A stretch of DNA of 64,000 bases, taken from Acidobacteriota bacterium. Its GTDB lineage: Bacteria > Acidobacteriota > UBA6911. Below, piece by piece: positions 188-31,881 of the stretch. Position 1 is the stretch's first letter. Each line of letters starts with the position of its first letter. Under the pieces are notes generated by a model, which saw only the letters and a program-made list of their open reading frames with translations, did no database searches and was not told where the DNA came from. Position numbers and translations under genes: made by a program. The stretch spans positions 559,219 through 623,218 of the forward strand of contig CBDFLD010000023.1 in assembly GCA_965249005.1 (NCBI GenBank). Direction: 5' to 3'.

Positions 188-302
188 TCCCGAATCCTGC
201 GCCCCCGCGCGCCACTGCGCGCCCCCCCTGCGCTCCCCTGGGCTCATGGTCCGGAAGCTGATTCCTAAAGCAGCCAATAACGTGAGACGATGAGGGCACC
301 GG

Positions 303-4434: not shown

Positions 4435-4441
4435 GTCGGAT

Positions 4442-5485: not shown

Positions 5486-6342
5486 CTGAACCCGCAGAGT
5501 TATCTCGAAAGGCGGCGCAGCTGCGACTCGATGTCCTTCACACCGTGGCGAAGGCGAAGAAAGGCCACGTGGGCGGGGCTCTTTCGGTCTTGGATATTCT
5601 GGTAAGTCTTTTCCATGGTGGCTTCCTCCGATACGAGCTCGGTCGCCGGCTCGGTGCTTCAGCTGTCCGATCCCGTTGTGCGTCGATCGAATCCGGACAG
5701 GATCGTTTCATACTGAGCAAGGGGCATTGCTCTGTCGCGCTATATGCGGTACTGGCCGACCTGGGCTTCTTCCCAAGGGAAGAGCTGTCAAGCTACAACA
5801 CCAACGGCGGCCTTCTGGGAGAACATCCGGATTATACGATTCCGGGGGTCGAAACAAGCTCCGGCTCACTGGGCAACGGGCTCGGAATCGGGGCTGGCCT
5901 GGCATGGGCGGCAAAGCTGGACGGCAAAGAGACCCGCGTATTCGTGGTCCTTGGCGACGGCGAGTGTCACGAGGGCGCCGTTTGGGAAGCTGCGCTCTTT
6001 GCTTCGCACCATCGCCTGAACAACCTGATCGCCATCATCGATCGCAACGGCTACTGTGTTCATGATACGACCGAGAATATTGTCCGGTTGGAGCCCTTCG
6101 AGGACAAGTGGCAGAGCTTCGCTTGGAACACCCGCCGGTTGAACGGACACGATTTCCCTTCCCTGAGAGAAGCGTTGAGGCATGCATGTGAGGAGTCCTC
6201 CGGCCCAACGGTTCTGATCGCGGATACGATCAAGGGAAAAGGGGTTTCCTTCATGGAGAACAAGGCCGAGTGGCACCACGGTGTCGTGCAGGGTCCTAGT
6301 TATGACAGGGCCGTTGTGGAGCTGGAGGCTTGCCTTCAATGA
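5482..6342 (+). CDS. Transketolase, N-terminal (TPP-binding) subunit of a split transketolase
   Basis: Contains LSKGHCSVALYAVLADLGF...GSLGNGLGIGAGLAWAAKL...VVLGDGECHEGAVWEAALFASHH(R)LNNLIAIIDRN. No canonical start follows the upstream stop: candidates are CTG 5482 (286 aa, typical length) or ATG 5335/5230 with a long overlap. Confidence 0.55.
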   Translation: MTEPAELSRKAAQLRLDVLHTVAKAKKGHVGGALSVLDILVSLFHGGFLRYELGRRLGASAVRSRCASIESGQDRFILSKGHCSVALYAVLADLGFFPREELSSYNTNGGLLGEHPDYTIPGVETSSGSLGNGLGIGAGLAWAAKLDGKETRVFVVLGDGECHEGAVWEAALFASHHRLNNLIAIIDRNGYCVHDTTENIVRLEPFEDKWQSFAWNTRRLNGHDFPSLREALRHACEESSGPTVLIADTIKGKGVSFMENKAEWHHGVVQGPSYDRAVVELEACLQ

Positions 6343-7307
6343 CGGTCGTCCCTCACCCCGTCGACCTTCGGGATGCCTTCTTTGACACGCTGCATCCAAT
6401 CGTGTCCGAGGATGATTCGGTGATGATCCTTACCGCCGATCACGGTGCGCAGGGCCTTACCAGAATCCTGGAGGAGTTTCCCAGCCAAGCGTTCAACGTG
6501 GGCATCTCAGAGCAAAACATGGTGAACGTGGCATCCGGCCTCGCCTTGGCCGGTAAGCGTGTCTTTTGCTATACGATTGCCAACTTTGTCACGCTCCGTT
6601 GCCTCGAGCAAATCAGCGTGAGCGTCTCTGGCAACGACCTGCCCATAAACCTCGTCAGCGTCGGCTGCGGTTTCACCTACAGCTCCGATGGGCCGACCCA
6701 TCATGGTCTCTTCGATATGGCTGCCGCCGGTCTGGTGCCCGGAATGTCGGTGTTCAACGCCTCGGATGCATGGATCACACAGGAGTTTGCACGCGAATCC
6801 GCTCGCCTCCCGGGGGCCAATTACTTCCGGCTTGAAAAAGGAACGTTGCCCTTGGTCATGGAAGCAGAGTTGACGAATCTGTCGGATGGACTGCGGGTTG
6901 TTCGGCCTGCGGGCGATGTGATGCTCCTGGCCACCGGGATCATGGTCCATCGAGCCCTGGACCTCGCCGACAAACTGCGGGAAGAAGGTTGGGACGCGGG
7001 TGTGGTAGACGTTTTTCGGCCCGTGCCGATCAACACCAAGAAGTTGGCGCAAATCGCGGATACGGCACAAAGTCTTGTCACCCTGGAGGAGAGTTACTTG
7101 CCAGGGGGCTTCGGATCCTCGGTCTGCTCCGCGCTGCAAGATGAAAACGTTCAGGTGCCTGTGCTGAGATTGGGAATACCGCATGAAACGACCTTCGCCT
7201 ATGGAAATCGGCAATGGATGCACGAACAAGTGGGTCTGGACGGCGATCGGATTCTGCGACGGTTCAAGCAATGGCACGCCTCTCAGCTGAGCCTGGTTCA
7301 TGATTGA
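6330..7307 (+). CDS. Transketolase, C-terminal subunit
   Basis: Pyrimidine-binding and C-terminal transketolase domains (FNVGISEQNMVNVASGLALAGKRVF). Overlaps the N-terminal subunit by 13 nt. Confidence 0.7.
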   Translation: MPSMTVVPHPVDLRDAFFDTLHPIVSEDDSVMILTADHGAQGLTRILEEFPSQAFNVGISEQNMVNVASGLALAGKRVFCYTIANFVTLRCLEQISVSVSGNDLPINLVSVGCGFTYSSDGPTHHGLFDMAAAGLVPGMSVFNASDAWITQEFARESARLPGANYFRLEKGTLPLVMEAELTNLSDGLRVVRPAGDVMLLATGIMVHRALDLADKLREEGWDAGVVDVFRPVPINTKKLAQIADTAQSLVTLEESYLPGGFGSSVCSALQDENVQVPVLRLGIPHETTFAYGNRQWMHEQVGLDGDRILRRFKQWHASQLSLVHD

Positions 7308-16749: not shown

Positions 16750-18264
16750 ATGCAAACACCACGCTTCAGTGTCCTGACGATCGTCAAAAACCGTAAGGCG
16801 ACGATCCAGCGGTGCATCGAATCCATCCTGGCCCAGGATTACCCTGATGTCGAGCTCGTGGTACAGGATGGAGCCTCCACCGATGGAACCCTGGAGATAC
16901 TGCGAAGCTACAACGGCCGGCTCGCGCTCCAGTCGGAACCGGACAAGGGAGCCACTCCCGCCTTCTTCAAAGCACTCGAGCGATGCACCGGGACCCTTTG
17001 GTGCGTTTGCATGTCCGACGAAGCCTTGCCGCCCGGGACGCTAAACTGGGCGGCCGCTCGGCTGCGGGAAAATCCCAAGTTGGGGGTGGTTTATGGAGAC
17101 GCCGAGATCATCGACTTCGAAGGAAAGGTCCTCAGCACGTACCGGCCTGCACCGGCCCTCAACTTCGAGAAGTACCTGATCGGGCAGGTCCGCCCCATCT
17201 TCTCGGCCAGCTTCTGGCGGCTGGAGGCGATCCGGTCGTCCGGACTGACCGAGTTCGACGGTGCCGGTGAAGTGGAGCAATGGTTGCGTGTGGCTGCCCA
17301 CTATCCTATCCGCTACTTCCCACGGGTGGTCTCGCGTTACGGCTACGCAGAGGAGACCCTCTCGAATACGGATATTCATCATCCTGACGCTGACGAGGAA
17401 CCTCATGAGACCGTGATCAACCAGGTCTTGAAAGATACGGACAAAGGAAGGGAGTGCGCCCACCTTCGCGAGCGAGCTCACAGCGGCGTTCATCTGTGGC
17501 ACGCCGTCTGCTTGCTCTGCAATGACCGGCCGCAAGAGGCTCTCCCGGTACTGGCAAAGGGACTGTTGAAATCTCCGTCTCGTGAACGCCTTCTGGACGT
17601 CTGGGACAAGGCCGAGCTCCTTCAGAACGCCGTCCGGCGACACAACCGTGACAAATCCGAGCAGCGAGCCTCTCCCGTTCGATTCGCGTACGATCGCATC
17701 GCGACCCAGATCGAAGATGGGGAGATCGAGCAGGCCAAGTCCGCCATTCTCTTCCTTCAGGATGAGCTCCATCAAGCACCGCTGCCGGCTCCGATCATTC
17801 CCGCTGATCTTGTTCTTTCCAGGCAGACTCCGGGGGCGGACCCCACCCACCCGACCGATCCGATTGCACTCAACCTCCTTTCGGAATGGCTTCACGCGCT
17901 GCTGACCGGAACATCCTCTTTGACGGAAGGACTCAAATATTACACGGCCCGCCCGCTCTTCATTTATGGCGGTGGAAATCTTGGGGGCATTGTCTATCAG
18001 GACTGCCTCCGCAACGGCATCGATGTTTCGGGAATCATCGACCAAAGGGGAGATTCCATCCGAAGTCAATGGAACGGCACCAGCGTGTACACTCCGCGAC
18101 AGGTGTCGTCCGCCCTTACCGGTTCGGCCATGATCCTGCTGGCCCTTTATCGAAACGAGCAGGAACAAGAAGCCGAGCGACTGCTCCGGCAGCTGGTTCC
18201 CGCATCGTGTCCCATCTTATCCTGGAAACTTCTTTCGCTCATCAGTCTTGCAAAGATCGACTAA
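16750..18264 (+). CDS. family 2 glycosyltransferase with C-terminal NeuD/PglD-N-like Rossmann domain (paralog A)
   Basis: GT2 core FSVLTIVKNRKATIQRCIESILAQDYPDVELVVQDGASTDGT plus a ~300-aa extension ending LFIYGGGNLGGIVYQDCLRNGIDVSGIIDQ...W..TSVYTP. Confidence 0.55.
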   Translation: MQTPRFSVLTIVKNRKATIQRCIESILAQDYPDVELVVQDGASTDGTLEILRSYNGRLALQSEPDKGATPAFFKALERCTGTLWCVCMSDEALPPGTLNWAAARLRENPKLGVVYGDAEIIDFEGKVLSTYRPAPALNFEKYLIGQVRPIFSASFWRLEAIRSSGLTEFDGAGEVEQWLRVAAHYPIRYFPRVVSRYGYAEETLSNTDIHHPDADEEPHETVINQVLKDTDKGRECAHLRERAHSGVHLWHAVCLLCNDRPQEALPVLAKGLLKSPSRERLLDVWDKAELLQNAVRRHNRDKSEQRASPVRFAYDRIATQIEDGEIEQAKSAILFLQDELHQAPLPAPIIPADLVLSRQTPGADPTHPTDPIALNLLSEWLHALLTGTSSLTEGLKYYTARPLFIYGGGNLGGIVYQDCLRNGIDVSGIIDQRGDSIRSQWNGTSVYTPRQVSSALTGSAMILLALYRNEQEQEAERLLRQLVPASCPILSWKLLSLISLAKID

Positions 18265-19775
18265 CCAAAATACTCGTCCCCAGTTCTCGATTCTCTGCTT
18301 CGTAAAGAACCGGAACGGGACAATCGCCCGTTGCGTAGAGTCCGTCTTGCGCCAGTCGGTCGAAGATTTCGAGCTCGTCGTCCAGGATGGGGCATCGACG
18401 GATGGCACGCTGGAAACCCTACGCCGCTACTCGGACCATCGGATCAAGCTCATCTCGGAGCCGGATGATGGTCCGGAGCAGGGCTTTTTTCGGGGTCTGC
18501 AAAGATGCCAGGGAAAATACCTGGGGATTTGCCAGTCCGACGAGGAGCTCGCTCCCGGCGCCTTGGCATGGGCTCGAAGGCATTTTGATGAGAACCCTCA
18601 GCTCGGAGCAATCTATGGAGATGCGGAGCTAACCGACTATTACGGAAACGGACTCGGCCTGTACCGGCCCGAGGGTCCATTCACGTTCGAGCGATTCGTC
18701 TGCGGCGAGATTCGACCCATTTGGTCGTCATCCTTCTTCCGCCTCGAAGCGGTCCGGCAAAGCGAGGTAAGAGAATCATCGATCCCCTCCGACACGGAAA
18801 TGTTCATGCGGGTGGGAGGTCGCTATGCCGTGGAATACTTCGAGGGAGTTGTTTCGCGGTACGGATTACACCCTTCCGCGTTCTCCTCGAACGAATCGAT
18901 GATCATGGGGACAGATCGAGGCTCGCCTCGACGGGATCTCGCGCATCTTTCATGAAACCCGCGAGGGGCGTCCCAGGGCGCACCTCGAGCGCCGAGCCAA
19001 AGCCAGCTGGCTTCTGTGGTACGCGGAGTGTCTCCTTTGCGTCGAAGCCACGGAAGAGGCCATCGAGCTGCTGAGGAGAAGTCTCCGCTACGTACAGGAC
19101 GACGGGCCGGAAACCGTTTTCTTGGCCCGTGCCAGGTTTCTTTCGGCGCACGTCTACGGCGATCGGAGCAGCGACAGAACTCCCGCTCATCTGCTGAGCC
19201 TCACCTGGAAACGGATTTGTCACGAGATTCGGATCGACGAGACCGAGAAAGCAAAGAAGTTGATCCGTTTCCTGCAGGACTCCCGTCCCCTGAGTCTGGA
19301 TCCCTGGGTAGAGCTCGATCGTTCGGTTTGCGTCGCGAACGGACTCCCGGCCAGGCGCTACGACTGCTCCAAGTACCCGGATCCGCTGAATCTGACGACA
19401 CTTTGGCTGCGTCGACAACTCTTCGCGCGATCCTGTATCAGCGATCCCTTCCGAGACGCTTTGGTTCGAGACATCTACATCTATGGGGGAGGGCAGCTGG
19501 GACACAGCCTCTTTCATGATTTCCGAAACGCGGGAATCCCGATCCAGGGAATCATCGACCAAAAGGCGGAAGAAATACAACAGCCGTGGCACCCGATTCC
19601 GGTTTATTCGCCCGATTCTATCACCACGCAGCTGCCGTCCACTGCAGCTTTCGTGCTTGCCCTCTATCAGCCCCAGCAGGAAATGGCCGCGCTCCAGCGG
19701 CTGGAGGCTCAAGGGGTCGACGCCCGCCAGGTCACTTCCTGGAAAGAGCTCGTCTATGACTCCAGTGAATCTTAG
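18248..19775 (+). pseudogene. GT2 + Rossmann-like-domain glycosyltransferase paralog B, frameshifted
   Basis: N-part 18248-18955 and C-part (frame open from ~18903; listed ATG 19122) are collinear with paralogs A and C. A single +1 shift lies at the GGGG run 18907-18910; removing one G restores ...MGQIEARLD... . Confidence 0.45.
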
Positions 19776-21399
19776 TGCTCCGGTCCATCCGCTCTTTTCG
19801 GTTCAGTGTTATGTGCTCAACCGGAGACAGACCATACGTCGCTGTCTCGAATCCGTATTGTCCCAGGATTACCCGAACATCGAGTTTGTCATCCAGGATG
19901 GCGCCTCCACGGACGGGACACTGGAAATACTCCAACAATACCAGGACGATCGGATCAAGCTGATTTCCGAGCCCGACGCCGGCCCCGAAGAGGCATTCTT
20001 CAAAGCGTTGAAGCGCTGCCGGGGCACCTTCTGGTGTACCTGCTTGTCGGATGAAGCGCTAATGCCGGGCGCGCTGAAGCGGGCAGCCGACGAGTTGCAG
20101 GCTCATCCGGAAGTTGGGGCTATTTACGGGGACGCGCAAGTGATCGATTTCGAGGGCAAGCCTTTGAGAACGTACCGGCCGGCTCCAGATTTCTCATTTG
20201 AGAAATTCTTGATCGGCCAGGTCATGCCGCTGTTTTCGTCCGCGTTCTTTCAGTTGGAAGCCGTGCGGGCAAGCTCCCTCACCGAGGGTCAGAACGCCGC
20301 CGACAGCGAATTGTGGCTAAAAATGTCCGCGCAATATCCAGTCCGCTATGTTCCGGAGACGTTTTCACGTTATGGAGTGGGAGAGACGACCTTTTCCAGC
20401 AACGCGAGCTTGATTCTTCGTCAACTCAAACCCCGGCTCGACGCCATCGACGAGGTGTTGAACGACACGGAAGCCGGGAGGGCCATCACCCACTTGCGCA
20501 AGCGGGCCCACGCAGGAGTACAGCTATGGTACAGCCAGTGCCTCCTCAATCTGGGCGCTTGTCAAGATGGTCTCCAACTCGCCAGAGAGGCTCTCCTGTC
20601 GGACGCGCGTGCAGACACCCTCTATGATTTGTGGGATAAGGCCGCAGGCTTTCAAAGAATCATCCACGCCTTCTCGGGCGACGGGTGCTCCTCCAGTACC
20701 TCTCCCATGGAATTCCTCTATCACTATATTCAAACCGCCGTGGAAAGGAACGAGGTCCAGCGAGCCGCTTCGATCATGAGCTTCGTTTCACTCGCCAACA
20801 ACCAAGATGCCTTTCCCCGCGGCATGTCTCGCCTGTTGCAGGTAATGATGCGCAAGCGGCCTGAACCGTATGCACCCCAAGATCAGAGTGCGTGGGTACC
20901 GACGAACTTGATGTCTCAATATATTCGGCACTTTCTCCAACAGGAGGCGCCGATCACGCTTCCCTTGAAGAAGGCCGGGGTCGAGCGCGTGTTCCTCTAC
21001 GGCGGAGGGGATCTGGGTCGAGTCCTGTACGCCGACTGCCGGAGCAGCGGCTTGACCGTCGCCACTGTCATCGATCAGAGAGGGGAGGAAATCCAGAACC
21101 AGTGGCCCGAGTGTCCGGTTCTTTTGCCCTCTAAGTGGCGTACGGCATACCGGCGGGATGGCGAAAAGCAACGGAACGGTAGTAGCGCGGACGAAGAAAC
21201 CACCGGCAGTGACACTTGTCTTGTGCTCGCGTTGTATGAGGAGAATCAGGAAACATCTGCCCTTGAGACGCTACGGCAAGAGAGTCCGACGCCCCCGTCC
21301 TTGTTTCCGGTAACCATTTCCTGGCGAGAGCTTGTACTCTTCACACACCTCTATCCGAGTTATCGAGATTGCTTCTTAGCGTCGTCACCCCAGCCCTGA
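19756..21399 (+). CDS. family 2 glycosyltransferase with C-terminal Rossmann-like domain (paralog C)
   Basis: MTPVNLSAPVHPLFSVQCYVLNRRQTIRRCLESVLSQDYPNIEFVIQDGASTDGT and a C-terminal LYGGGDLGRVLYADCRSSGLTVATVIDQRGEEIQNQW. Confidence 0.55.
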   Translation: MTPVNLSAPVHPLFSVQCYVLNRRQTIRRCLESVLSQDYPNIEFVIQDGASTDGTLEILQQYQDDRIKLISEPDAGPEEAFFKALKRCRGTFWCTCLSDEALMPGALKRAADELQAHPEVGAIYGDAQVIDFEGKPLRTYRPAPDFSFEKFLIGQVMPLFSSAFFQLEAVRASSLTEGQNAADSELWLKMSAQYPVRYVPETFSRYGVGETTFSSNASLILRQLKPRLDAIDEVLNDTEAGRAITHLRKRAHAGVQLWYSQCLLNLGACQDGLQLAREALLSDARADTLYDLWDKAAGFQRIIHAFSGDGCSSSTSPMEFLYHYIQTAVERNEVQRAASIMSFVSLANNQDAFPRGMSRLLQVMMRKRPEPYAPQDQSAWVPTNLMSQYIRHFLQQEAPITLPLKKAGVERVFLYGGGDLGRVLYADCRSSGLTVATVIDQRGEEIQNQWPECPVLLPSKWRTAYRRDGEKQRNGSSADEETTGSDTCLVLALYEENQETSALETLRQESPTPPSLFPVTISWRELVLFTHLYPSYRDCFLASSPQP

Positions 21400-22448
21400 A
21401 CAGCGTTCGATTCATCCGGGAAACGCTCGACAGCGTCCTGAGCCAGGGTCACGCGCGGATGGAACACATCGTTGTCGATGGAGGCTCCACTGACGGCACC
21501 GTGGAGCTGCTGACCGAATATCGAGATAGATATCCCGAACGGCTTCGTTTTATCTCAGAACCGGATCGTAACAACTGTGACGCCATGAACAAGGGATGGA
21601 GACTGGCGCAAGGAGAAATCCTTTGTTGCATGGGCAGCGACGACATCATGCCGGAGGGAACGGCCGAATACGTGGTTCGCCATTTCCTCAGCCATCCCGA
21701 AGACTCCGTAGTCTACGGCGAGTGCGACATCATCGATGAAGAGGGACAGTACATCGGTAGGCTTGCAACCCGAGATTTTTCTGTCGATCGCTCAGTCAAC
21801 GACTCCACCTGTGTGAGCTTCCCGGCCTGTTTCTATCGCAAACAGGTCGTGGATACGGTCGGACCGGCTTTGATCGAAAGCCTTGTTTGTGACCACGAGT
21901 TTCTGATTCGGGCCGGAAAACAGTATCCCTTCCGTCGTGTCCCGCGAATCCTTTCTCACTTCCGCCTGCACCCTGGGAGCATCACGGGAACATCCTGGAA
22001 CGGCGCTTATGTGGGGGCCATGTACGAAACCAACCGGCTGCACCATGGCCGTCTCACCTCGAGTGTGTGCCGCAGATTTTTTCGCCGGAAGCTTTCGCGA
22101 CTACCATGGGTCGGGAAGCTCGCCGGTGGGCTTCGAAACAGTAGTTCCCACGGAGAGCCGTGGGCCGGGAAAAGAGCCATCATATTCGGAGCGGCGATGA
22201 CCGGTCATGCTTGCCTGGCTGAACTGAGAAAATCCAACAAGGAAGTGCTCTTCTTCATCGACAACTCGCCCCCACCCGGCGGCCGATACTCCGGCCTGCC
22301 CGTCTACCGCCCGGAACACCTCCGCGAGCATCCACACCTGGATTTCGACGTCATTCTATTGGCCACGGGCGGGCGGGACAAGGACATGCGAAACCAACTC
22401 CGAGATCTGGGAATTCAGTCTTCCGTCCTTCGTTATCGGGCAGATTGA
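21369..22448 (+). CDS. family 2 glycosyltransferase with C-terminal Rossmann-like domain
   Basis: TTG start. LSVVTPALNSVRFIRETLDSVLSQ...VVDGGSTDGT GT2 core, with a C-terminal AIIFGAAMTGHACLAEL...VLFFIDN...GLPVYRP. Confidence 0.55.
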   Translation: MLLSVVTPALNSVRFIRETLDSVLSQGHARMEHIVVDGGSTDGTVELLTEYRDRYPERLRFISEPDRNNCDAMNKGWRLAQGEILCCMGSDDIMPEGTAEYVVRHFLSHPEDSVVYGECDIIDEEGQYIGRLATRDFSVDRSVNDSTCVSFPACFYRKQVVDTVGPALIESLVCDHEFLIRAGKQYPFRRVPRILSHFRLHPGSITGTSWNGAYVGAMYETNRLHHGRLTSSVCRRFFRRKLSRLPWVGKLAGGLRNSSSHGEPWAGKRAIIFGAAMTGHACLAELRKSNKEVLFFIDNSPPPGGRYSGLPVYRPEHLREHPHLDFDVILLATGGRDKDMRNQLRDLGIQSSVLRYRAD

Positions 22449-22461
22449 TCATAGGGAAACC

Positions 22462-23484
22462 ATGACGAAAGAAACTCCTACCGCCTTCATCACCGGCATC
22501 ACCGGCATGGTGGGCTCGCATCTGACGGACTTTCTGCTGGCCCACACCGACTGGGAAATCTTCGGCCTCTGTCGGTGGCGTAGTCCGCTCGACAACCTGG
22601 CGCATTTGATTCCCAGAATCGAAAGGAAGGAGCGCGTACAGCTCCTGTACGGAGATCTCAACGACTTCAGCTCCTTGGCCACCGCGATTGCGCGCAGCAA
22701 GCCCGACTATGTCTTCCATCTGGCGGCACAAAGCTACCCGCAAACCAGTTTCTCCGCCCCACTGGAAACCTTGGAAACCAACATCTTGGGCACCTGTCGA
22801 TTGCTCGAGACCATCCGATCTCAACCTGGTTGTGACCCTGTGGTGCACGTTTGCGCATCGTCGGAAGTCTTTGGCAGAGTCCCGAGCGACAGATTACCGA
22901 TTCACGAAGAGTGTTCCTTTCATCCCGCATCGCCGTATGCCATCTCCAAGGTCGGGACAGACCTAATCGGCCGCTATTACGGTGAGGCCTACGGCCTCAA
23001 AGCGGTGACTACGCGGATGTTTACGCACACCGGTCCGCGGCGCGGAGATGTCTTCGCAGAGTCGACCTTCGCCAAACAGATCGCCCTGATCGAAGCCAGG
23101 CACGTGGAACCTGTGCTTCGGACCGGCAATCTGGAATCGTTGCGTACCTGGGCCGACGTGCGGGACGCCGTGCGCGCCTATTACCTGCTGGTGACCACGA
23201 ATCCGGTTCCAGGGGAGTATTACAACATTGGAGGGACGTACTCGTGTACCGTCGGCGAGATGCTCAAGGTGCTGCTCTCGTACTCCAAGGTGCCGAATAT
23301 TGAAGTCAAGCAGGATCCGGATCGCCTTCGTCCACTGGACGCGGATCTTCAGGTTCCCGACACCACCAAGTTCATGGCGAAGACCGGATGGAAACCCGAG
23401 ATTCCTTTCAAGCAGACGATGCAGGACTTGCTGAATTACTGGCGCGATCGTATTCGATCCGGCCAGAAGTTCTTGACCCGTTGA
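22462..23484 (+). CDS. gmd: GDP-mannose 4,6-dehydratase
   Basis: AFITGITGMVGSHL, the YAISK catalytic tetrad region (SPYAISKVGTD), and a TTRMFTHTGPRRG motif characteristic of short-form Gmd. 340 aa. Confidence 0.65.
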   Translation: MTKETPTAFITGITGMVGSHLTDFLLAHTDWEIFGLCRWRSPLDNLAHLIPRIERKERVQLLYGDLNDFSSLATAIARSKPDYVFHLAAQSYPQTSFSAPLETLETNILGTCRLLETIRSQPGCDPVVHVCASSEVFGRVPSDRLPIHEECSFHPASPYAISKVGTDLIGRYYGEAYGLKAVTTRMFTHTGPRRGDVFAESTFAKQIALIEARHVEPVLRTGNLESLRTWADVRDAVRAYYLLVTTNPVPGEYYNIGGTYSCTVGEMLKVLLSYSKVPNIEVKQDPDRLRPLDADLQVPDTTKFMAKTGWKPEIPFKQTMQDLLNYWRDRIRSGQKFLTR

Positions 23485-23548
23485 ACCTCTGACGGGCCTC
23501 CACCGATGGACTCCTAAAGATTACCCTGGGGCGGACGATGAGAGCATC

Positions 23549-23570
23549 AACGGCCTTCGGCTGTTTTTTT
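23549..23570 (+). terminator. weak candidate rho-independent terminator after gmd
   Basis: Short hairpin (AACGGCC-UUC-GGCUGUU with one G-U pair) running into a T7 tract at 23564-23570. It lies in the 110-nt gap before the regulator gene. Confidence 0.3.
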
Positions 23571-23594
23571 CGAGACCTCGTGCTGATTGGATGA

Positions 23595-24278
23595 GTGACC
23601 ATAATGGCTAAGCGGGCTTCTGAAAACCTATACATACGCTCCCCCAAGCGAAATCTCCTCTCCATTCTCAACGCTCTGAGCTCGAATCCGAACCTGACTC
23701 AGGCATCCCTGGCTGAGCTCTGTGATCTATCGGTAGCGATGGTCAACAACTACCTGAAGGAGCTCGACTCCGCAGGGGTAATCGAATATCGTCGCAAAAG
23801 TCTTCGTGTGATCTCCTATCACTTGACGCCGGCCGGAAAGCGCAAGCTCACGGAGGTGCAACAGGACCTGCTGGGTGAAATGATTGGCTTTTACTCGGAA
23901 ACCAAGTCGTGGCTCCTGAACTCGATCGTGGAGCAAGCCGGAAGCCTGCAGCGTGTGTTGCTCTTTGGCACGGGAGAGCTGTGTGAACTGGCTCTCCATG
24001 CGCTGGAATCCGAAGGGATCAAGGTCATGGGGATCTGCGACGAAGCGCCTGACCGGATCGGGCAGGAGTGGTGCGGTCGAGAAATCCTGAACCCCGCGCA
24101 GATTCGATATATCGCCCCGGACGCCGTGGTTATCGTGGATGTTGCCCGGACCGTTGAGATTTACGCCAAGCAACAGCACCTCTTGAGCTCGGGCATTGCC
24201 CTGGTGCGTCTCGACGGGCACCCCTCGGAAGCACCCGCCAGCATCCAGGAAGAAGAACCGACCATGTCCCTCGTCTAG
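23595..24278 (+). CDS. winged-helix (MarR-like) transcriptional regulator fused to a NeuD-N-like Rossmann domain
   Basis: N-terminal wHTH (LTQASLAELCDLSVAMVNNYLKELDSAGVIEYRR) and C-terminal RVLLFGTGELCELALHALESEGIKVMGICDEAPDRIGQEW...AVVIVDV. GTG 23595 or ATG 23604. Confidence 0.5.
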   Translation: MTIMAKRASENLYIRSPKRNLLSILNALSSNPNLTQASLAELCDLSVAMVNNYLKELDSAGVIEYRRKSLRVISYHLTPAGKRKLTEVQQDLLGEMIGFYSETKSWLLNSIVEQAGSLQRVLLFGTGELCELALHALESEGIKVMGICDEAPDRIGQEWCGREILNPAQIRYIAPDAVVIVDVARTVEIYAKQQHLLSSGIALVRLDGHPSEAPASIQEEEPTMSLV

Positions 24279-24519
24279 CCCCGCCCCCCGTTCCTTCCCC
24301 GCCTGCTTCACCCCCCTCTCCTGTTTTCGCGGCAAGGTCCTGCGGTCTCGAAAACGAATTCCAAGAAAACACTACTTTGCAACTCCGGCGGGATCCGTTC
24401 GGGACCCACCCATGGATCTTTGTGGTCATCGAAGCGGGGCAAATCAAACAAAGAAAGTTCTCAACTTTTGGCGAAGCTGTGACGAAAACTAGTACACGCC
24501 AACATGGAGCGCCAGATTA

Positions 24520-24756
24520 ATGAACAACAAACTGAAAAGTCTCATTGCTGATCTGTTCAAGTGCGACGTAAGCGATCTAACCGATGATACGGGACCGGGC
24601 GATATCCCCGGATGGGACTCCCTGGGTCATGTGACGCTAATGGCCGAGATTCAAAAGCAGTTAGGGACTCACGTGCCGGTGGAAGACGCGATCGAAGTCG
24701 AGTCTATCGCCGATCTGGCCAGTCTCTTAGAGCAGCTTCAGGGGCAAGTGACGTGA
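24520..24756 (+). CDS. acyl carrier protein
   Basis: 78 aa, acidic, with a GWDSLGHVTLMAEI phosphopantetheine-attachment DSL motif. Confidence 0.7.
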   Translation: MNNKLKSLIADLFKCDVSDLTDDTGPGDIPGWDSLGHVTLMAEIQKQLGTHVPVEDAIEVESIADLASLLEQLQGQVT

Positions 24757-25520
24757 AGATCGCCGGCAGGAACATCGTCATTACGGGCGGTGCCTCCGGT
24801 CTCGGTTTTGCGTTTGGCGAACAGCTCTATCGGCTACAGGCGCGCGTGTGGTCCTTGGACCGGAATCAACACAGCATTGCAGCCGCAATGGCGGCCCGGG
24901 AAACGAATGGTAGTCACCGCGGCAAACTCGAGTTTCTCTGCTGTGACGTAGGAGACGAAGCTCAGGTCATCGAGACGGTTGCAAGGATCGAGTCGGATTC
25001 AGGAGGAATCGATGTCCTGATCAACAACGCAGCCGTCCTCAGAGACCAATCCCTGGTCAGCCGGCTCCGGAAGAAAATCAAGCAGCACTCCCTCGAAGAC
25101 TGGAACGAAACCCTGCGAAGCAACCTTACCGGGCCCTTCCTGATGACCCGCGAGGTGGCGTCGGTCATGATTTCCGCCAAGCGTCCCGGCATCGTCGTTA
25201 ATATTTCATCCATCTCACGGGCAGGCAACGCGGGCCAGAGCGCGTACTCCGCCAGCAAGGCAGGAATCGACGCACTGACGGCTACCTGGGCTCAGGAGCT
25301 CGCCGTCTACCGCATCCGTGTAGTCGGCCTCGCCCCGGGATTCGTAGAGACCCCCATGACCGAGAGGATCCCGGCACTTTTCTTGGAAGCCATCCGGCAA
25401 AAAAGTCCACTCAAGAGGTTTGGCACCCTGGGTGAGTTCGGGCACACGATACAGTACATCATCGAGAACGACTATCTTCACGGCAAGGTGTTGGAGCTCG
25501 ACGGTGGCCTGCGCTTCTAG
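24753..25520 (+). CDS. short-chain dehydrogenase/reductase (3-oxoacyl-ACP reductase FabG-like)
   Basis: GTG start overlapping the ACP stop (GTGA). ITGGASGLG cofactor motif, NNAA, and the S...YSASK catalytic triad. Confidence 0.7.
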   Translation: MKIAGRNIVITGGASGLGFAFGEQLYRLQARVWSLDRNQHSIAAAMAARETNGSHRGKLEFLCCDVGDEAQVIETVARIESDSGGIDVLINNAAVLRDQSLVSRLRKKIKQHSLEDWNETLRSNLTGPFLMTREVASVMISAKRPGIVVNISSISRAGNAGQSAYSASKAGIDALTATWAQELAVYRIRVVGLAPGFVETPMTERIPALFLEAIRQKSPLKRFGTLGEFGHTIQYIIENDYLHGKVLELDGGLRF

Positions 25521-25545: not shown

Positions 25546-26964
25546 ATGTCGACATCAAAAGAAGTTGCCAGAGCAGCCCTATTTGTTTCCTACCACTTCC
25601 CTCCGTGTACCAGCATCGGAATGCGCCGAACTCTACGTTTTGTCCGCGGTATCGGAACGCTGGGGTGGCGTCCGGTCATTCTGACGGTCCGGAACCAGGA
25701 TTACCTGCGAGAGCCCACCGAGGAGATCGCTTGTGATCACATACCCGAGACAGCATCGGTCTACCGGACGCGAGTGAGGCGGCCGCTGGAGCTCGCGCTC
25801 TGCCTGCGCGACCGCTGGCGCCGGCTCACGCGATCCAAAAACCACAGTTCAGGCCAGCAGGCGTCCGGCGCCCAGGGCGACCCGGCTTCCAGTCCTGGCG
25901 CTCGGTCCTGGGTCCAGCGCTGGATCGACCCATGGTTTAGCACCCCGGATGCACAGGTTGGCTGGCTCCCATCGGCGGTGTGGAAGGGTTGGCGCGCGAT
26001 CGGCCCCGAGGGTGTGGCCGTCATTTACAGTAGCGGCCCTCCCTACAGCGCACATTTGATCGCATGGGCGCTGAAGAAGCTTTCGGGCCGCCCCTGGGTG
26101 GCCGACTTCAGGGATCCGTGGAGCCGCCGCCCCTGGGATCAGGATATTGTCAACCGCACGCCCCGCTACCGGGTTCAGGTATGGATGGAAAGAGTGGTCG
26201 TTCTCGCGGCCGACACCCTCATCAGCAATACCCGTGCAATGGGCGAGGATTTTCGCGATCGCTATCCGGACGAGCCGCGGGACAAATTCGTCGTCATCAC
26301 AAACGGCTACGACCCGGAGACGTTGCCAAAGCCAACCCGGGAACCGTCGCAGCAGACCTTCAACATCACGCATACCGGAGCCATCTACGGACGCCGAGAT
26401 GCGAGGCCCATCATCCGCGCCCTGGCCCAGATTCGTGATGCCGGGAACATCCAGCCCGGATTCTTGAATCTGAAGCTCGTGGGCAAACTGGAGGCAGAAG
26501 CCGAGGTCCAGGCGATGATCCAGTCTCTGGATCTGGCTGATTGGGTGACCATTGTTCCTGAGGTCTCCTTCCAGGAGAGCATCCGGTATCTGGCCCGTTC
26601 CCAGGTTTTGCTCGTTTTGCAGCCGGATGCGCCCCTTCAGATACCTGGAAAATTGTTCGAATACATTTATCTCAAAAAGCCGATTCTAGCATTGACGGGG
26701 GAAGGAGCGACGGCCGAGATCATCCGTCAATACAGGCTGGGGGAGGTAGTACCGCCGGATGACCCCGAACGCATCGCAGGGGCCATTGCCCAGCTTTACC
26801 AAGACTCTCACGAGAGTCGCGTCGGGCCGGACGAGTCCGCCCTCAGAGATTTTCATACAGCCACCCTGACGGCCGAGCTGGTATCGGTTTTCGAGTCCGT
26901 GGCCGCGTCGCAACGCAAACCGCTCGTGAGTCCAGCTCCTGAGAAAGTAGTGGAGAATCGATAA
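25546..26964 (+). CDS. family 4 (GT-B fold) glycosyltransferase
   Basis: GT4-like: N-terminal acceptor domain and C-terminal ...E(Y/F)xxxKPILA... donor-binding region (LFEYIYLKKPILALTGEGA). Confidence 0.55.
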   Translation: MSTSKEVARAALFVSYHFPPCTSIGMRRTLRFVRGIGTLGWRPVILTVRNQDYLREPTEEIACDHIPETASVYRTRVRRPLELALCLRDRWRRLTRSKNHSSGQQASGAQGDPASSPGARSWVQRWIDPWFSTPDAQVGWLPSAVWKGWRAIGPEGVAVIYSSGPPYSAHLIAWALKKLSGRPWVADFRDPWSRRPWDQDIVNRTPRYRVQVWMERVVVLAADTLISNTRAMGEDFRDRYPDEPRDKFVVITNGYDPETLPKPTREPSQQTFNITHTGAIYGRRDARPIIRALAQIRDAGNIQPGFLNLKLVGKLEAEAEVQAMIQSLDLADWVTIVPEVSFQESIRYLARSQVLLVLQPDAPLQIPGKLFEYIYLKKPILALTGEGATAEIIRQYRLGEVVPPDDPERIAGAIAQLYQDSHESRVGPDESALRDFHTATLTAELVSVFESVAASQRKPLVSPAPEKVVENR

Positions 26965-28097
26965 TGGCAAAGTTGAAGCTGAGCTTCCCTTCCTATCAGC
27001 AACCGAGCATGGTCACCTTCGGAAGCGGCTCGATCCGCACCCTGGCGGAATGCGCCCCGCTGAAGGATAGCGCGATCTTCCTCAGCGGCCGGGAGGAGGT
27101 CCGCAACGTGGTTGAGCGGAGCTTGAGCAAGCGTGGCATAGACCTCGGAGATGCTCCCGTACTCGTCAAGCCCGCCGGAGAGCCGACGCTCGAAATGGTG
27201 AAATTGGGTGCAGCTTTCCTGAAAAAGCAACCCTTCCAGCGAGTGATCGGGATCGGGGGCGGCTCCGTGATGGACTGGTGCCGGTTGTCGTGGGCCGAGT
27301 CGGAAGAAATCCTCAAATTCGATGGCCAGCGCGCGCTGGTCGAAGGATCGGCGCCGAGAACCACGGAGCTGTGGCTGGTTCCCTCGACCTGCGGGACAGG
27401 CGGAGAAGCAGCCAATATTGCGGTCTTCAGCCACGAAGGCCGGAAGATCCCGGCCGTCTCACGGGCGTTCGTGGCAGACCGTGTCGTACTCGACGGCCAA
27501 TTTCTCTCGAGCGTCGGCCCGGCCGTCCTGGCCAACTCCCTTTGCGACGCTTTGAGCCATGCGATCGAAGCCTATGTGTCGATCCTTCCCTGTCCGCTGG
27601 CCAAGGAAGCAGCCGTATCGGCGCTGACGCTCATCTTCCGGCACTATACGGATGGCAGCCCGTCGCGAAACGACCGTCTGATGGAGGCAGGCTACCTTGG
27701 CGGGGTCGCCGCCGCCAACTGTTCGGTTGGGGCGATTCACGCTTTTGCTCACACAATCGCCGCATACGGCGTCTCCCACGGTCATGCCAACGCCCTCGGT
27801 CTCATTGCCGGCGTTTACTCCAATCAAGATGTGCCCGCGATGCAAGCACTCCTTGGCCGCTGCGGAGCCAGAACCATCGACGAGTTCATTGACCAGCTGC
27901 GGCCAATTGTCCAGACCGCGCTGTCGCGCGACCGCGACATGGAGCTGCTCCAAGCGCTCCGCGACCAATCGGCTCTGCGTCTGGTCAGCGAGCAGATGTC
28001 CGCGGACGTTTGTATGCGTTCGAGCCCCAGAGCGTTGGAACCGAAGGAAGTGCCGACCTTCCTGGAAAAGGTAGCCGAAACGGTCGAATGCCTATGA
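26964..28097 (+). CDS. iron-containing (group III) alcohol dehydrogenase / DHQS-like superfamily
   Basis: GIGGGSVMDW glycine motif, CDALSHAIEAYVS and HAFAHTIAAYGVSHGHANA metal-binding His cluster typical of Fe-ADH. 377 aa. Confidence 0.6.
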   Translation: MAKLKLSFPSYQQPSMVTFGSGSIRTLAECAPLKDSAIFLSGREEVRNVVERSLSKRGIDLGDAPVLVKPAGEPTLEMVKLGAAFLKKQPFQRVIGIGGGSVMDWCRLSWAESEEILKFDGQRALVEGSAPRTTELWLVPSTCGTGGEAANIAVFSHEGRKIPAVSRAFVADRVVLDGQFLSSVGPAVLANSLCDALSHAIEAYVSILPCPLAKEAAVSALTLIFRHYTDGSPSRNDRLMEAGYLGGVAAANCSVGAIHAFAHTIAAYGVSHGHANALGLIAGVYSNQDVPAMQALLGRCGARTIDEFIDQLRPIVQTALSRDRDMELLQALRDQSALRLVSEQMSADVCMRSSPRALEPKEVPTFLEKVAETVECL

Positions 28098-29536
28098 AGA
28101 TTGCGACCCAGGAAGCGACAACACTCGATGCCATCGAGTCGGTCGACGGGACGGCCCTCGCACTGGTCGATAACTCAGATAGCCTTAGCTACGGGCAGAT
28201 GCGAGGCGCGGCGCGGCAGATAGCCTCACGGGTGCAGGAGCGTTACGGAACGGAGCAGTACATTCTCGTCCGGGCGACATCGGACGTGTGGTTCGTCACG
28301 TCGCTACTGGGCATCCTCTACAGCGGCAACACCCCCATCCCGGTGGACGAGCAAGCGCCGCTCTCCTCATTGAGCTATATGAAGGACAAGGCCGGAGCTG
28401 TCGACGTCATCGCTCCACTCCGCCCCGGCGAATTCGAGGCTCTCCCACCAACGTTCGAGCCCAATGACTCCAGGCCAGCCCTGATCCTTTTCACCTCCGG
28501 CACCACGGGTTTTCCAAAAGGTGTCATAATCTCTCATCAGAACCTCAGCCATTCCTGCCGCGCGATATCGAGCTATCTGGGTTACCCCGAACACCCCTCC
28601 GCGGCCGTCGTGCTCCCGTTGCACTACAGCTACGCGCTGCTGTCTCAGGTATGGTGCCAACTCTCGATCGGCGGATTGGTTCGTCTTTTTTCGAACTTCA
28701 AGAACCCCATCAAATTCAGTCGCGTCGCCAACGAGATGGGGCTGGAGACGTTCTGCGGCGTCCCGGCCACCTACAATGCCCTGGCGACGATTCACCACAT
28801 GAGCCCAATCGAGATGCCCGGCTTCCGGGTGCTCTGCTCCGCCGGAGCCGCCATGGACCGAAGCAAGTTCGGCGATATCAAGAAGATCTTCCCCAACGCC
28901 GTTTTCTTCAACAACTATGGCATGACGGAAGCCGCTCCACGGATCTCCTACATCCGTGAGGACGATCCCCGTTTCTTCGAGCCCACCTGCGGGCACCCCA
29001 TGGATGGGGTCCAGGTCAAGATCGTAGATCCCGAGACTCACGTGGATCTACCCGACGGCGAGCCTGGGATGCTGGTCGTCCGGGGGCCCAACATCACCCC
29101 TGGGTACCTGAACGACGAGAAGATCACGCAAGAGTCTTTCACCGCAGACGGGCATCTGATTTCCGGTGATGTCGCCTACAGCGAGAACGGCTATTTTTTT
29201 ATTTGCGGGCGTCACGACGACATCTTCAACGTGGGAGGAGAGAAAGTAGCTCCCCTCGAGATCGAGCGAGCGCTGCACAAGAACTCTGCCATTGAGGCCG
29301 CCGCCGTGAGCGGCCTGGCCGACGAGGCACGAGGGAAAATCCCGGTGGCCTTTCTGAAGTTGAAACAAGCCGCCTCGAGGCGAGACATCATGGGCGCGCT
29401 CGACGGCGAGCTGCCTCCGGTAAAGATCCCACAACGCTACTTCGAGGTCAGTGGTTTTCCCGTGACCTCCAATGGAAAGATACAGAGACGCAAGCTTTCC
29501 GTGGACGATTCCTTTGTCATCCGGGAGATTGTTTGA
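28088..29536 (+). CDS. AMP-dependent synthetase/ligase (acyl-CoA/acyl-ACP synthetase)
   Basis: LFTSGTTGFPKGV AMP-binding motif, YGMTE, and GDVAY...GR.DD..NVGGEKV.P.EIE C-terminal core. Confidence 0.65.
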   Translation: MPMKIATQEATTLDAIESVDGTALALVDNSDSLSYGQMRGAARQIASRVQERYGTEQYILVRATSDVWFVTSLLGILYSGNTPIPVDEQAPLSSLSYMKDKAGAVDVIAPLRPGEFEALPPTFEPNDSRPALILFTSGTTGFPKGVIISHQNLSHSCRAISSYLGYPEHPSAAVVLPLHYSYALLSQVWCQLSIGGLVRLFSNFKNPIKFSRVANEMGLETFCGVPATYNALATIHHMSPIEMPGFRVLCSAGAAMDRSKFGDIKKIFPNAVFFNNYGMTEAAPRISYIREDDPRFFEPTCGHPMDGVQVKIVDPETHVDLPDGEPGMLVVRGPNITPGYLNDEKITQESFTADGHLISGDVAYSENGYFFICGRHDDIFNVGGEKVAPLEIERALHKNSAIEAAAVSGLADEARGKIPVAFLKLKQAASRRDIMGALDGELPPVKIPQRYFEVSGFPVTSNGKIQRRKLSVDDSFVIREIV

Positions 29537-29537
29537 A

Positions 29538-30617
29538 ATGTTCTTGGACCGCGTGGCTCCCTACGGCTTGGATCCCGACCAAAAGCACTCCTATCTGTCC
29601 GGCCAGCTTCAGGCACTGCTCGAACATCACGAGAAGATGTGCGCGCCCTACGCCAACATCGTAGGGGACTGGCGGAAACATGATCAGACGGATCGAAACC
29701 AGATCGAGGACTACCCGTTTATTCCCGTCACGATCTTCAAGGAATATGACCTGAGATCGACCCAGGGGGAGGTCATGAGCCTTCAATCCTCGGCCACGAC
29801 TTCCGGCAACGCCTCAAAGATATACGTCGACAAGCCAACCCGGAAGCGCCAGACCATCTCAGCCAACAGAGTCCTGTCCAGCTTCGTCGGGAACGAGAAG
29901 CGTCCCTACCTGGTCTTCGACAGCGAGTCTACGGTTCGCGGAAGCGCCTCCATGGGGGCTCGCGGGGCTGCAATCCTGAGTCTGGCCCATCTCGCATCCG
30001 AATTTCATTTCATCGCCAGGGAGGAAGGCGGGCAGTTGTCTCTGGACGTCGACGCACTGGACGGTGCCCTGCAACGGATCGGACAAGAACCCTTCATTGC
30101 GTATGGGTTCACCTACATCCTGTATCAGATGCATCAGGAGCTTGCCCGCCAGGAACGGACGCTCCCGGTCGCCCATCCAGACTCGATGCTGCTGCACAGC
30201 GGGGGCTGGAAACGGCCGATTGATCTTGCGGTGGACAAGGAGACCTTCAATCGAACGATCTCCTCCGTATGGGGCCTTCGCGAGGAACAGGTGATCGACT
30301 TCTACGGTGCCGTCGAACAGATCGGCGTCCCGTATCCCGACTGTGCCGAGGGTTACAAGCATGTTCCATACTGGGCGGAGATCATCATTCGCAAGAGCGA
30401 CACACTCGAGCCTGCCGGGATTGGGGAAACCGGATTGATACAGCTGCTGAATTGCCTCCCCCTGTCGGCGCCCAACCACAGCGTCTTGACCGAAGACCTC
30501 GGGCAGTTGAGTCTCCTGGACGGATGCCGGTGTGGGCGACGAGGCAAGGCATTCGTTTTCATCGGCAGGGCTCCGCGCTCGGAGACGAGAGGATGCAGTG
30601 ACGTCACAAGACACTGA
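29538..30617 (+). CDS. LuxE-like acyl-protein synthetase
   Basis: 360 aa with a LuxE-family (PF04443-like) architecture: N-terminal YPFIPVTIFKEYDLRS...SSATTSGNASKIYVD and ACS-like C-terminal half. Follows the AMP ligase by 1 nt. Confidence 0.5.
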   Translation: MFLDRVAPYGLDPDQKHSYLSGQLQALLEHHEKMCAPYANIVGDWRKHDQTDRNQIEDYPFIPVTIFKEYDLRSTQGEVMSLQSSATTSGNASKIYVDKPTRKRQTISANRVLSSFVGNEKRPYLVFDSESTVRGSASMGARGAAILSLAHLASEFHFIAREEGGQLSLDVDALDGALQRIGQEPFIAYGFTYILYQMHQELARQERTLPVAHPDSMLLHSGGWKRPIDLAVDKETFNRTISSVWGLREEQVIDFYGAVEQIGVPYPDCAEGYKHVPYWAEIIIRKSDTLEPAGIGETGLIQLLNCLPLSAPNHSVLTEDLGQLSLLDGCRCGRRGKAFVFIGRAPRSETRGCSDVTRH

Positions 30618-31881
30618 GATTACGACTGCAGGCCCTAAAGGACCCGCCAACGGAGATCAATCCTACTCCGCTCTGCTCAGCGGACTGGGCGAGCGGCGGG
30701 AATCACCCAAAGCTCTATCGTTCGATGAGCGCCTCGCGGTGCTGGATGCCTTTTCCGACGCATTGCTGGAGCGAGGAAACACACTGATCGGGGCGCCCTT
30801 GCCCGGACTCCCTTTTCTGGCAGGGTTCCTGCGGCGCTCCAATCTCGAGAAGCTGGTATCCCGCCAGATTCCCAATCCGGAAGCGCTGCGTCGTTTTTGT
30901 TCCGTGGGCGAGCGCAAGAGTTTGCGTCTGGTCCCCAGGGGGATCGTCTGTCATTGGATCGCCGGCAACGTGCCGCTTCTGGGTATGTTCTCATGGGCCC
31001 TGAGCGCCTTGGCTGGAAACCTCAACGTCATTCGTCTCAGTACACGGCAGGACGACTTCATTACTCCGATCCTGAGTCACGTCGCGGAGCTATCCGAGGG
31101 CGGAAAACAGATGGTCGAGGAGACCGTGGTACTGCGTTTCGAGCGAGACAACCTCGCGGCACACGAGGACATGAGTAATATGGCCGACGTCCGCATTGCC
31201 TGGGGGGGACAGGAAGCTGTGGAAGCGATACGGGCGCTTCCGTGTCGCTGGACCTGCGAAGACATCGTTCTTGGCCCCCGAGCCAGTCTCGCGGTCGTCG
31301 ATCCGGCCCTGATGACGAAGGGAACTCTTTCCCGACTGGTGACCGATATCGTATTCTTCGATCAACTCGCGTGCAGTTCGCCTCAGTTGCTCTTCGTTCG
31401 CGGACGACCAGGAGAAAGCTCGTTTGATTCGTTTTTCGAGAGTTTCTGCGCGGCCTTCGCCACGCAATCCACGGCCATCCCGCGTCATCCACTTGATTTC
31501 GCGGAGACCTTTCAGATCCAGCTCGATCGAACCCGAATGTTGCTCGATCAGGGCAAGCTGTCTCGCGATCGACGCACCCAATGGACGGTTGCGGCCCGGG
31601 AGCAACCCCTGGGCTCGGTCGTCTGCGCCAACCGCTTCATTCAAGTGATTCCCGCGAGTCGATGGCAGGACGTGACGCGCCATATTCCCAACAACGTCCA
31701 GACCATCGTGACCTTGCTCTCCAAACAGGAGCACGAGCAGTTTACCGAGGAGGCGTCTCACCACGGGGTCTGTCGTTTTCCCCGACCCGGGGAGGGAAAT
31801 AATTTCGAAGATCCCTGGGATGGCGTGGCTCTGCTGGCCCGTCTCTGCCGCTGGGTGATCCGCAGCGACCCAAGAAGCTGA
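30598..31881 (+). CDS. LuxC-like acyl-CoA (acyl-protein) reductase
   Basis: LuxC family (PF05893-like): VCHWIAGNVPLLGMFSWALSALAGNLNVIRLS and an aldehyde-dehydrogenase-like fold. No ATG start; candidates are GTG 30598 or GTG 30532. Confidence 0.5.
   Translation: MTSQDTEITTAGPKGPANGDQSYSALLSGLGERRESPKALSFDERLAVLDAFSDALLERGNTLIGAPLPGLPFLAGFLRRSNLEKLVSRQIPNPEALRRFCSVGERKSLRLVPRGIVCHWIAGNVPLLGMFSWALSALAGNLNVIRLSTRQDDFITPILSHVAELSEGGKQMVEETVVLRFERDNLAAHEDMSNMADVRIAWGGQEAVEAIRALPCRWTCEDIVLGPRASLAVVDPALMTKGTLSRLVTDIVFFDQLACSSPQLLFVRGRPGESSFDSFFESFCAAFATQSTAIPRHPLDFAETFQIQLDRTRMLLDQGKLSRDRRTQWTVAAREQPLGSVVCANRFIQVIPASRWQDVTRHIPNNVQTIVTLLSKQEHEQFTEEASHHGVCRFPRPGEGNNFEDPWDGVALLARLCRWVIRSDPRS

Follow-up and report, generated by a model that had tools for sequence, protein, structure and literature searches.

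The window analysed here, a 64,000-nt stretch of an Acidobacteriota genome (contig CBDFLD010000023.1, positions 559,219–623,218, forward strand), contains exactly five copies of a Rossmann-like domain of about 95 aa. Four form the C-termini of the family 2 glycosyltransferases GT2-A, GT2-B, GT2-C and GT2-D. The fifth forms the C-terminal half of a winged helix-turn-helix (wHTH) regulator, R. Pairwise searches, profile comparisons and controls establish the five segments as paralogous copies of one mobile accessory domain of ~95 residues. As an entity the domain is not new: precomputed annotation of GT2-D and of R homologs points to a Pfam entry (PF22674), and the superfamily is characterised. 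What is new is a family of regulators that carry the domain, and the repeated occurrence of their genes next to those of enzymes with a copy of it; both are uncharacterised. With confidence that is only modest, the domain is probably an accessory module that binds a nucleotide-type ligand and dimerises; on the enzymes it would regulate or handle substrate, and on R it would act as a sensor.

All copies are on the plus strand. Copy A occupies 17944–18261 (hidden Markov model (HMM) matches; AlphaFold2 model), copy B 19464–19763 (HMM matches) and copy C 20980–21345 (BLASTP and HMM matches). Copy D occupies 22164–22445, belongs to a GAAxxG subfamily and is recognised by hhalign and by the A6 HMM described below (E 2.5e-25, D itself being in the model). 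Copy R occupies 23940–24215, with a GTGxxC loop, D149 closing strand 2 and the family-conserved C148 and C160. The original prediction had placed all copies at or very near these positions, with the exception of copy C, given as 20990–21200; its greater extent is owing to an insertion of ~20 aa after the third strand. The insertion (~21155–21215) is rich in charged residues (RRDGEKQRNGSSADEETTGS) and is not found in A, B, D or R.

In pairwise BLASTP over the domain, copies A, B and C, whose proteins are paralogs over their whole length, match one another at 1e-20 to 1e-24. R matches A, B and C at 4e-9 to 9e-7. D is weak in such comparisons: 5e-4 against B, not significant against A, C or R. 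The 712 six-frame open reading frames (ORFs) of the window were scanned with an HMM of 49 R-family proteins, enzyme copies excluded; the best non-self ORFs were B, A and C (1e-6 to 4e-5). The A6 HMM was built from enzyme-borne copies only, with D included and neither R nor C. It retrieved R at 2.9e-14 and C at 1.4e-11, the next ORF following at 0.51. In profile–profile comparison (hhalign) the D family (P0200–P0203, P0241, P0302) is related to the R family with a probability of 98.3% (E 1.3e-13) and to A/B/C with 96.2%. The enzyme set is related to the R family with 99.0% (E 5e-18, 93 columns). Copy D therewith appears as a more remote subfamily, marked by its GAAxxG loop and tied to the others by profiles alone.

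The N-terminal Rossmann parts of five short-chain dehydrogenase/reductase (SDR)/epimerase proteins of the window, taken as controls, reach 0.1–8%, as against 82–99% for the five copies; the likeness is therefore that of a specific subfamily and not generic GxGxxG similarity. Generic similarity or low-complexity linker sequence could be argued from the insignificant pairwise scores of D against A, C and R and from the lack of an above-threshold match of the five window copies in the local Pfam scan. It was rejected on the controls, on the gap between 1e-11 and 0.5 in the HMM scan and on full-length alignments of ~90 columns, which leave it a negligible probability. The recurrence of one small dinucleotide-fold domain, as originally proposed, is confirmed by these results, and the alternative of unrelated or linker sequence is effectively refuted.

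The AlphaFold2 model of the A domain has a predicted local distance difference test score (pLDDT) of 91. Five-stranded beta-alpha-beta fold, in the order beta1, glycine-rich loop, alphaA, beta2 ending in aspartate, and three more strands. In precomputed Pfam annotation PF22674 (C2185-like_N) is assigned to P0199, the database protein identical to GT2-D, to 32 of 48 homologs of R, and to fusions with GT2, GT4, GT-D and methyltransferases. Among these homologs is P0001, which is 96% identical to R; A, B and C are tied to carriers of PF22674 via profile comparisons only. The local Pfam scan of the window proteins did not report PF22674. No description of the entry and no usable literature on PF22674 or 'C2185-like' were found, and we know of no function for it. 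Local Pfam and NCBIfam matches are sub-threshold or borderline: Methyltransf_14, CoA_binding, PglD_N (sub-threshold only), NeuD_NnaD (positions 2–75) and Rex. No other Pfam family matches as many copies as Methyltransf_14 (PF08484), with 9 of 23 members and a best E of 5.5e-5. The curated cut-off of Methyltransf_14 is reached in P0003, a homolog of R, and in proteins of locus L022; the copies in the window stay below threshold.

A profile of 28 enzyme-borne copies was searched against PDB sequences. The best match is 3nkl (6.3e-12), an N-domain fragment of a CapD/WbpM-type 'UDP-D-quinovosamine 4-dehydrogenase'. The profile also matches Rex (2vt2, 5.2e-9; 5zz5, 4.8e-8), VioB of the NeuD/PglD class (6.1e-8), PerB (1.2e-3) and residues 145–239 of WbaP (2.1e-3). 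In the structural search proposed in the original prediction, carried out by Foldseek with predicted models of the A domain and of R, the Rex family came first; with the A domain it was followed by VioB (rank 3), KefC, WbaP (8t53; E 1.2e-2, TM 0.59), 3nkl and PerB. The domain belongs to the same superfamily as the NAD(H)-binding domain of Rex, the N-domains of NeuD, PglD and VioB, the N-domains of CapD and WbpM and, probably, the 'DUF' of WbaP. The likeness to NeuD/PglD N-domains, as first suggested, holds at superfamily level, whereas the nearest relatives are 3nkl and Rex.

The N-domain of NeuD, PglD, PerB and VioB (PglD_N, TIGR03570) shares with the window domain the pattern G-x-G-x-x-G ... 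G-F-(I/L)-D-(D/N) and a place in glycan pathways. The window domain differs in its C-terminal position on GT2 enzymes, in scores far below the TIGR03570 cut-off of 160.8 bits (A 14.1, C 15.8, D 14.2, R 22.3, over model positions 2–75 only) and in the lack of a left-handed beta-helix acetyltransferase half. The absence of the hexapeptide-repeat half, noted from the start, is borne out: no Hexapep match was obtained at E ≤ 1, and the window proteins end 0–20 residues past the domain. The accessory domain of CapD/WbpM/PglF-type dehydratases, with 3nkl as the closest sequence match, and the WbaP 'DUF' resemble it as accessory, non-catalytic domains of glycan-assembly enzymes; unlike these, it is fused to soluble-type GT2 proteins, other enzymes and a transcription factor, not to membrane phosphoglycosyl transferases or dehydratases. 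The WbaP 'DUF' is described as PF13727/CoA-binding (PMC10942596). PF13727, the WbaP-type accessory family, was not among the Pfam scan matches. The C-terminal domain of sugar C-methyltransferases (Methyltransf_14) is likewise similar; the window proteins are without a methyltransferase domain.

The most conserved positions are the same in the enzyme and the regulator sets: the glycine-rich loop and the aspartate that ends strand 2. In the enzyme set the first glycine is present in ~90% of copies and the strand-2 aspartate in ~80%. This conservation peak is the signature of a nucleotide site. Rex senses NADH through the equivalent domain, and the N-domains of PglD, PerB and VioB help to hold the nucleotide of the NDP-sugar substrate. 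In WbaP, UMP, UDP and UTP stabilise the isolated 'DUF', which also provides the dimer interface, and UMP inhibits the full-length protein (PMC10942596). By analogy with these relatives, the window domain would bind the nucleotide part of a ligand (NDP-sugar, nucleotide or dinucleotide) and would mediate dimerisation. At the C-termini of the four GT2 enzymes it may have a regulatory function or handle substrate. R would be a one-component regulator arranged in the Rex manner (wHTH, long helix, Rossmann), with this domain for sensing and dimerisation, and its DNA binding would change with ligand occupancy. R and the enzymes possibly differ in their ligands.

Regulator R (23604–24278, plus strand). 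224 aa from ATG 23604, with wHTH (nt 23643–23825), a long helix of 37 residues (nt 23829–23939) and the Rossmann-like domain; AlphaFold2 pLDDT 86.8. The start codon is most likely ATG 23604 (MAKRASEN...) and not GTG 23595, since the conserved leader block ends 4–6 nt before the ATG in homologs and the homolog P0001, 96% identical, has 224 aa. The wHTH is matched by HTH_24 at 43.5 bits (cut-off 21.9). Membership in MarR proper was considered and rejected on family cut-offs: 18.7 against 24.6 bits for PF01047 (MarR), 20.8 against 27 bits for PF12802 (MarR_2) and 26.9 against 88 bits for TIGR04176 (MarR_EPS). The description of R as MarR-like is kept in the sense of a generic wHTH of MarR-like type.

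R belongs to an uncharacterised regulator family, here met only in Acidobacteriota. The family comprises 48 proteins of ~226 aa, 39–96% identical, all homologs of R being from Acidobacteriota metagenome-assembled genomes (MAGs), some of which have at least two paralogs. The recognition helix, LSVAMVNNY.K, is invariant. Further family motifs are a GxGxLA loop, CDDDPxxIG, which resembles FDxDPxKIG of Rex, and an EWCGRE block. Neither described regulators of this kind nor regulators of extracellular polysaccharide in Acidobacteria were found in the literature. Two cysteines are invariant or nearly so in the family, GVC148DDDP and EWC160GRE (numbering given for 23595–24278), and are not present in the enzyme copies. 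The pair hints at a regulator-specific thiol- or metal-based feature; a disulfide joining the two was among the readings considered.

With the full-length R model, Foldseek lists the Rex family at ranks 1, 2, 4 and 6–9, over ~210 aligned columns and with TM-scores of 0.33–0.39, low because the domains are arranged differently. Rex (2vt2, 5zz5, 1xcb, 3wg9) and R have in common an N-terminal wHTH followed by a small Rossmann-like domain, a GxGxxG-type loop and the motif G(I/V)xDxDPxxIG. R differs from Rex in its HTH_24/MarR-like wHTH family, in the 37-residue interdomain helix and in the lack of a predicted swapped C-terminal helix. NCBIfam Rex models match only the Rossmann part of R, at 12.5–15.1 bits against cut-offs of 126–226, and the full-length R profile matches Rex at 0.35. 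From the structural matches and these scores R is taken, as modelled, to be Rex-like in architecture (wHTH plus Rossmann), yet not a Rex. The fusion architectures had originally not been recognised as characterised. This needs correction: Rex is a well-characterised analogue of the wHTH-plus-Rossmann arrangement, GT2 fusions are widespread, and PF22674 is catalogued.

Beyond the window, some dozen of the top 150 GT2 relatives also have a C-terminal copy of the domain. One protein of 1011 aa combines radical SAM, two copies of the domain and GT2. Fusions of the domain to GT2 and to many glycan enzymes are widespread; the architecture is therefore not unique to this cluster. The 286-aa linker-plus-domain part of GT2-A gave no match in a word-indexed search, because close full-length relatives are confined to this species group, as found by exhaustive profile search. 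Within 10 kb of R homologs, domain-bearing ORFs other than R occur in 9 of 37 species-level loci. Among the partners are GT2 proteins, a 1604-aa GT4 protein, a GT9-like protein, an FkbM methyltransferase, radical SAM/SPASM proteins, an FrhB/pyruvyl-transferase fusion and TPR proteins. In locus L022 five consecutive genes downstream of R bear the domain. The co-location of regulator and domain enzymes is suggestive, not proven. Locus L049 (1–12783) is a LicD/GT-D/IspD-type glycan cluster of a different, low-GC organism (44% GC), with no R homolog. It has six or seven domain-bearing genes, including a stand-alone protein of 158 aa, GT2, methyltransferase, GT-D and GT4; many copies per cluster are therefore a wider phenomenon.

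Several observations weigh against a ligand-binding module shared by enzymes and regulator. With the isolated domain, Foldseek gives E-values that are modest (1e-3 to 2.5e-2, TM 0.5–0.65). The glycine-rich loop is degenerate in some copies, being GAAxxG in D and GTGxxC in R. The strand-2 aspartate is replaced by serine, threonine or glutamate in some R-family members and is lost in an 'FTSS' subgroup of GT2. The co-location of R with domain enzymes was counted without a background frequency. About half of the R homologs have housekeeping genes (QueF, XseAB) and no glycan genes as neighbours, and PHP/BipA is another housekeeping context; R is therefore not strictly a regulator of glycan clusters.

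Three other readings were weighed. In the GT2 enzymes the domain could be catalytic machinery that holds the nucleotide of the NDP-sugar, as does the N-domain of PglD, PerB and VioB or the C-domain of sugar C-methyltransferases, the copy on R being an independent re-use. The profile matches to VioB and PerB, the matches to Methyltransf_14 in the largest number of copies, up to its cut-off in P0003 and the L022 proteins, and the presence of the same domain on many different sugar-modifying enzymes are in keeping with this. However, the catalytic domains of GT2 already bind the NDP-sugar donor, and stand-alone and TPR-only versions of the domain exist. Moreover, most close GT2 homologs of D are without it (260–300 aa, ~66% coverage), so the domain is dispensable for fold and chemistry. 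A catalytic role is possible but rather unlikely. That R is a functional Rex, a redox sensor of NADH/NAD+ with no ligand in common with the glycosyltransferase copies, is somewhat less likely still. It draws on Rex being both the best PDB sequence match of an R-dominated profile (5zz5, 7e-4) and the best full-length structural match of R, on the shared G(I/V)xDxDPxxIG motif and on the sub-threshold matches of NCBIfam Rex models. The scores of these models are, however, 13–15 bits where 126–226 are demanded, and the full-length profile falls to the value given above. The wHTH of R is of HTH_24/MarR type, and PF06971, the N-terminal DNA-binding family of Rex, is absent from its Pfam matches. The third glycine of GxGxxG is alanine or cysteine in the R family. 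Rex carries a domain-swapped C-terminal helix after the last strand; the R model has no helix after its last strand (202–205), and its tail (214–227) is disordered.

A pure protein–protein interaction module, which would assemble the glycosyltransferases and tether or sequester R with no small-molecule ligand, is improbable. The related domains of Rex and WbaP do form dimer interfaces (WbaP: PMC10942596), domain-bearing enzymes are many per cluster (5 here, 5 in L022, 6–7 in L049), and regulator and enzymes are co-located. Conservation is nevertheless centred on the glycine-rich loop and the strand-2 aspartate, which is the pattern of a nucleotide site, and L049 has many copies yet no R. The nucleotide-type ligand-binding and dimerising module therefore remains the preferred reading. 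Understanding of small Rossmann-like accessory domains on glycan-assembly enzymes is only beginning, and the locus presents one superfamily across many enzyme classes and a transcription factor of Rex-like architecture. Acidobacteriota are major soil producers of extracellular polysaccharide. The locus offers a testable route to how these bacteria might adjust both gene expression and enzyme activity to their pools of nucleotides or nucleotide-sugars; the invariant recognition helix and the conserved upstream element make the DNA target and the ligand of the R family directly testable. If the domain is only a generic dimerisation handle, the finding is a useful annotation of PF22674 and little more.

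Of 40 distinct leaders of R-family genes, 37 carry a bipartite element, TAAAG-N17-CGAT(G)A, roughly 93 nt before the start codon. A second conserved block stands directly before the ATG. In the window the promoter-like element upstream of R is CTAAAG-N15-ACGATGAG (23514–23542, plus strand). A second copy (265–294, plus strand) precedes the NHL-repeat gene at 303–2870. The composite motif CTAAAG-N15/16-ACGATGAG has exactly these two matches in the window, with 0.00 expected by chance. In L022, too, a second R-type leader element precedes an NHL gene. In 9 of the 37 species-level loci an NHL homolog is found no more than 10 kb from the R homolog (phmmer 1e-36 to 1e-128): L001 (10722–13307, minus strand) and L022 (10859–13417), also L015, L019, L024, L026, L029, L032, L033 and L044. 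The R-family leader gave no Rfam match and no RNAalifold consensus structure, and a structured RNA was therefore set aside for a DNA-level element. From its fixed 17-nt spacer the element looks like a bipartite promoter; it may alternatively be an operator.

A palindromic operator model (CAYTSANTSARTG) had no match in the window, nor had the block before the start codon, and no inverted repeats were detected in the three intergenic regions examined. The original proposal that R controls the downstream acyl module through 24279–24519 finds no support, neither an inverted repeat nor a leader element being present there. An acyl carrier protein (ACP) gene absent from the gene list was located at 24521–24757; the R–ACP intergenic region is therefore 24279–24520, with the same negative result, and the downstream module opens with the ACP. 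Past the element and ahead of the start codon, the leader of R contains an intrinsic-terminator-like hairpin (23549–23575, AACGGCCTTCGGCTGTT followed by a T run). It could end the upstream glycosyltransferase/GDP-mannose-dehydratase transcript or attenuate R. A wider proposal is that R and the adjacent glycan enzymes share a sensor/dimerisation domain and read the same nucleotide-sugar signal, or that the enzymes titrate R by homotypic contacts, which together with the NHL gene and TAAAG-N17-CGATGA would make an undescribed, phylum-wide regulatory module for surface glycans. It is put forward as a long shot.

All genes from 303 to ~33 kb are on the plus strand and form a sugar-polymer or glycolipid cluster. 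Past ~33 kb follow Ser/Thr kinases, outer-membrane proteins and peptidases, with no relation to glycan synthesis. The cluster is headed by the NHL-repeat/Vgb_lyase-like gene (303–2870, ~850 aa). In order, two E1/transketolase-like pairs, epimerases, an aldo-keto reductase, a GHMP kinase, a nucleotidyltransferase and GT2-A to GT2-D follow. GT2-A (16750–18264) has 504 aa: GT2 catalytic domain, helical TPR-like linker and C-terminal Rossmann-like domain; from ATG 16750 it is identical to P0049. GT2-C (19756–21399) has 547 aa and is identical to P0321. GT2-D (21369–22448) has 359 aa, with GT2 domain, short linker and Rossmann-like domain. The gathering cut-off of PF00535 (GT2), 23.3 bits, is passed by A (64.1 bits), B (69.1), C (77.6) and D (93.2). 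A GDP-mannose-dehydratase-like gene (22462–23484) stands between GT2-D and R.

GT2-B (18248–19775) is split in two frames, one covering 18248–18955 and the other open over 18903–19775. A 1-nt insertion near 18910 (~18905–18912; ATGGGGACAGATC, against ...MIMGQIEA... in orthologs) puts the catalytic part and the linker plus domain in different reading frames in this assembly. The gene is annotated in this genome as pieces of 202 and 217 aa. Its orthologs in two related assemblies (P0051 and P0325) are intact, with 476 aa. The frameshift marks a recent pseudogene or, alternatively, stems from an indel error in long reads.

The ACP has 78 aa (...GWDSLGHV..., plus strand), and its stop codon overlaps the GTG start (24754) of an SDR gene. 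Downstream on the same strand are the SDR and a GT4, then Fe-ADH, AMP-ligase, LuxE and LuxC. The two E1/transketolase-like gene pairs and the ACP/KR/Fe-ADH/AMP-ligase/LuxE/LuxC set (3259–7307; 26964–31881) suggest a branched or acylated sugar product, either a glycolipid or an acylated polysaccharide.

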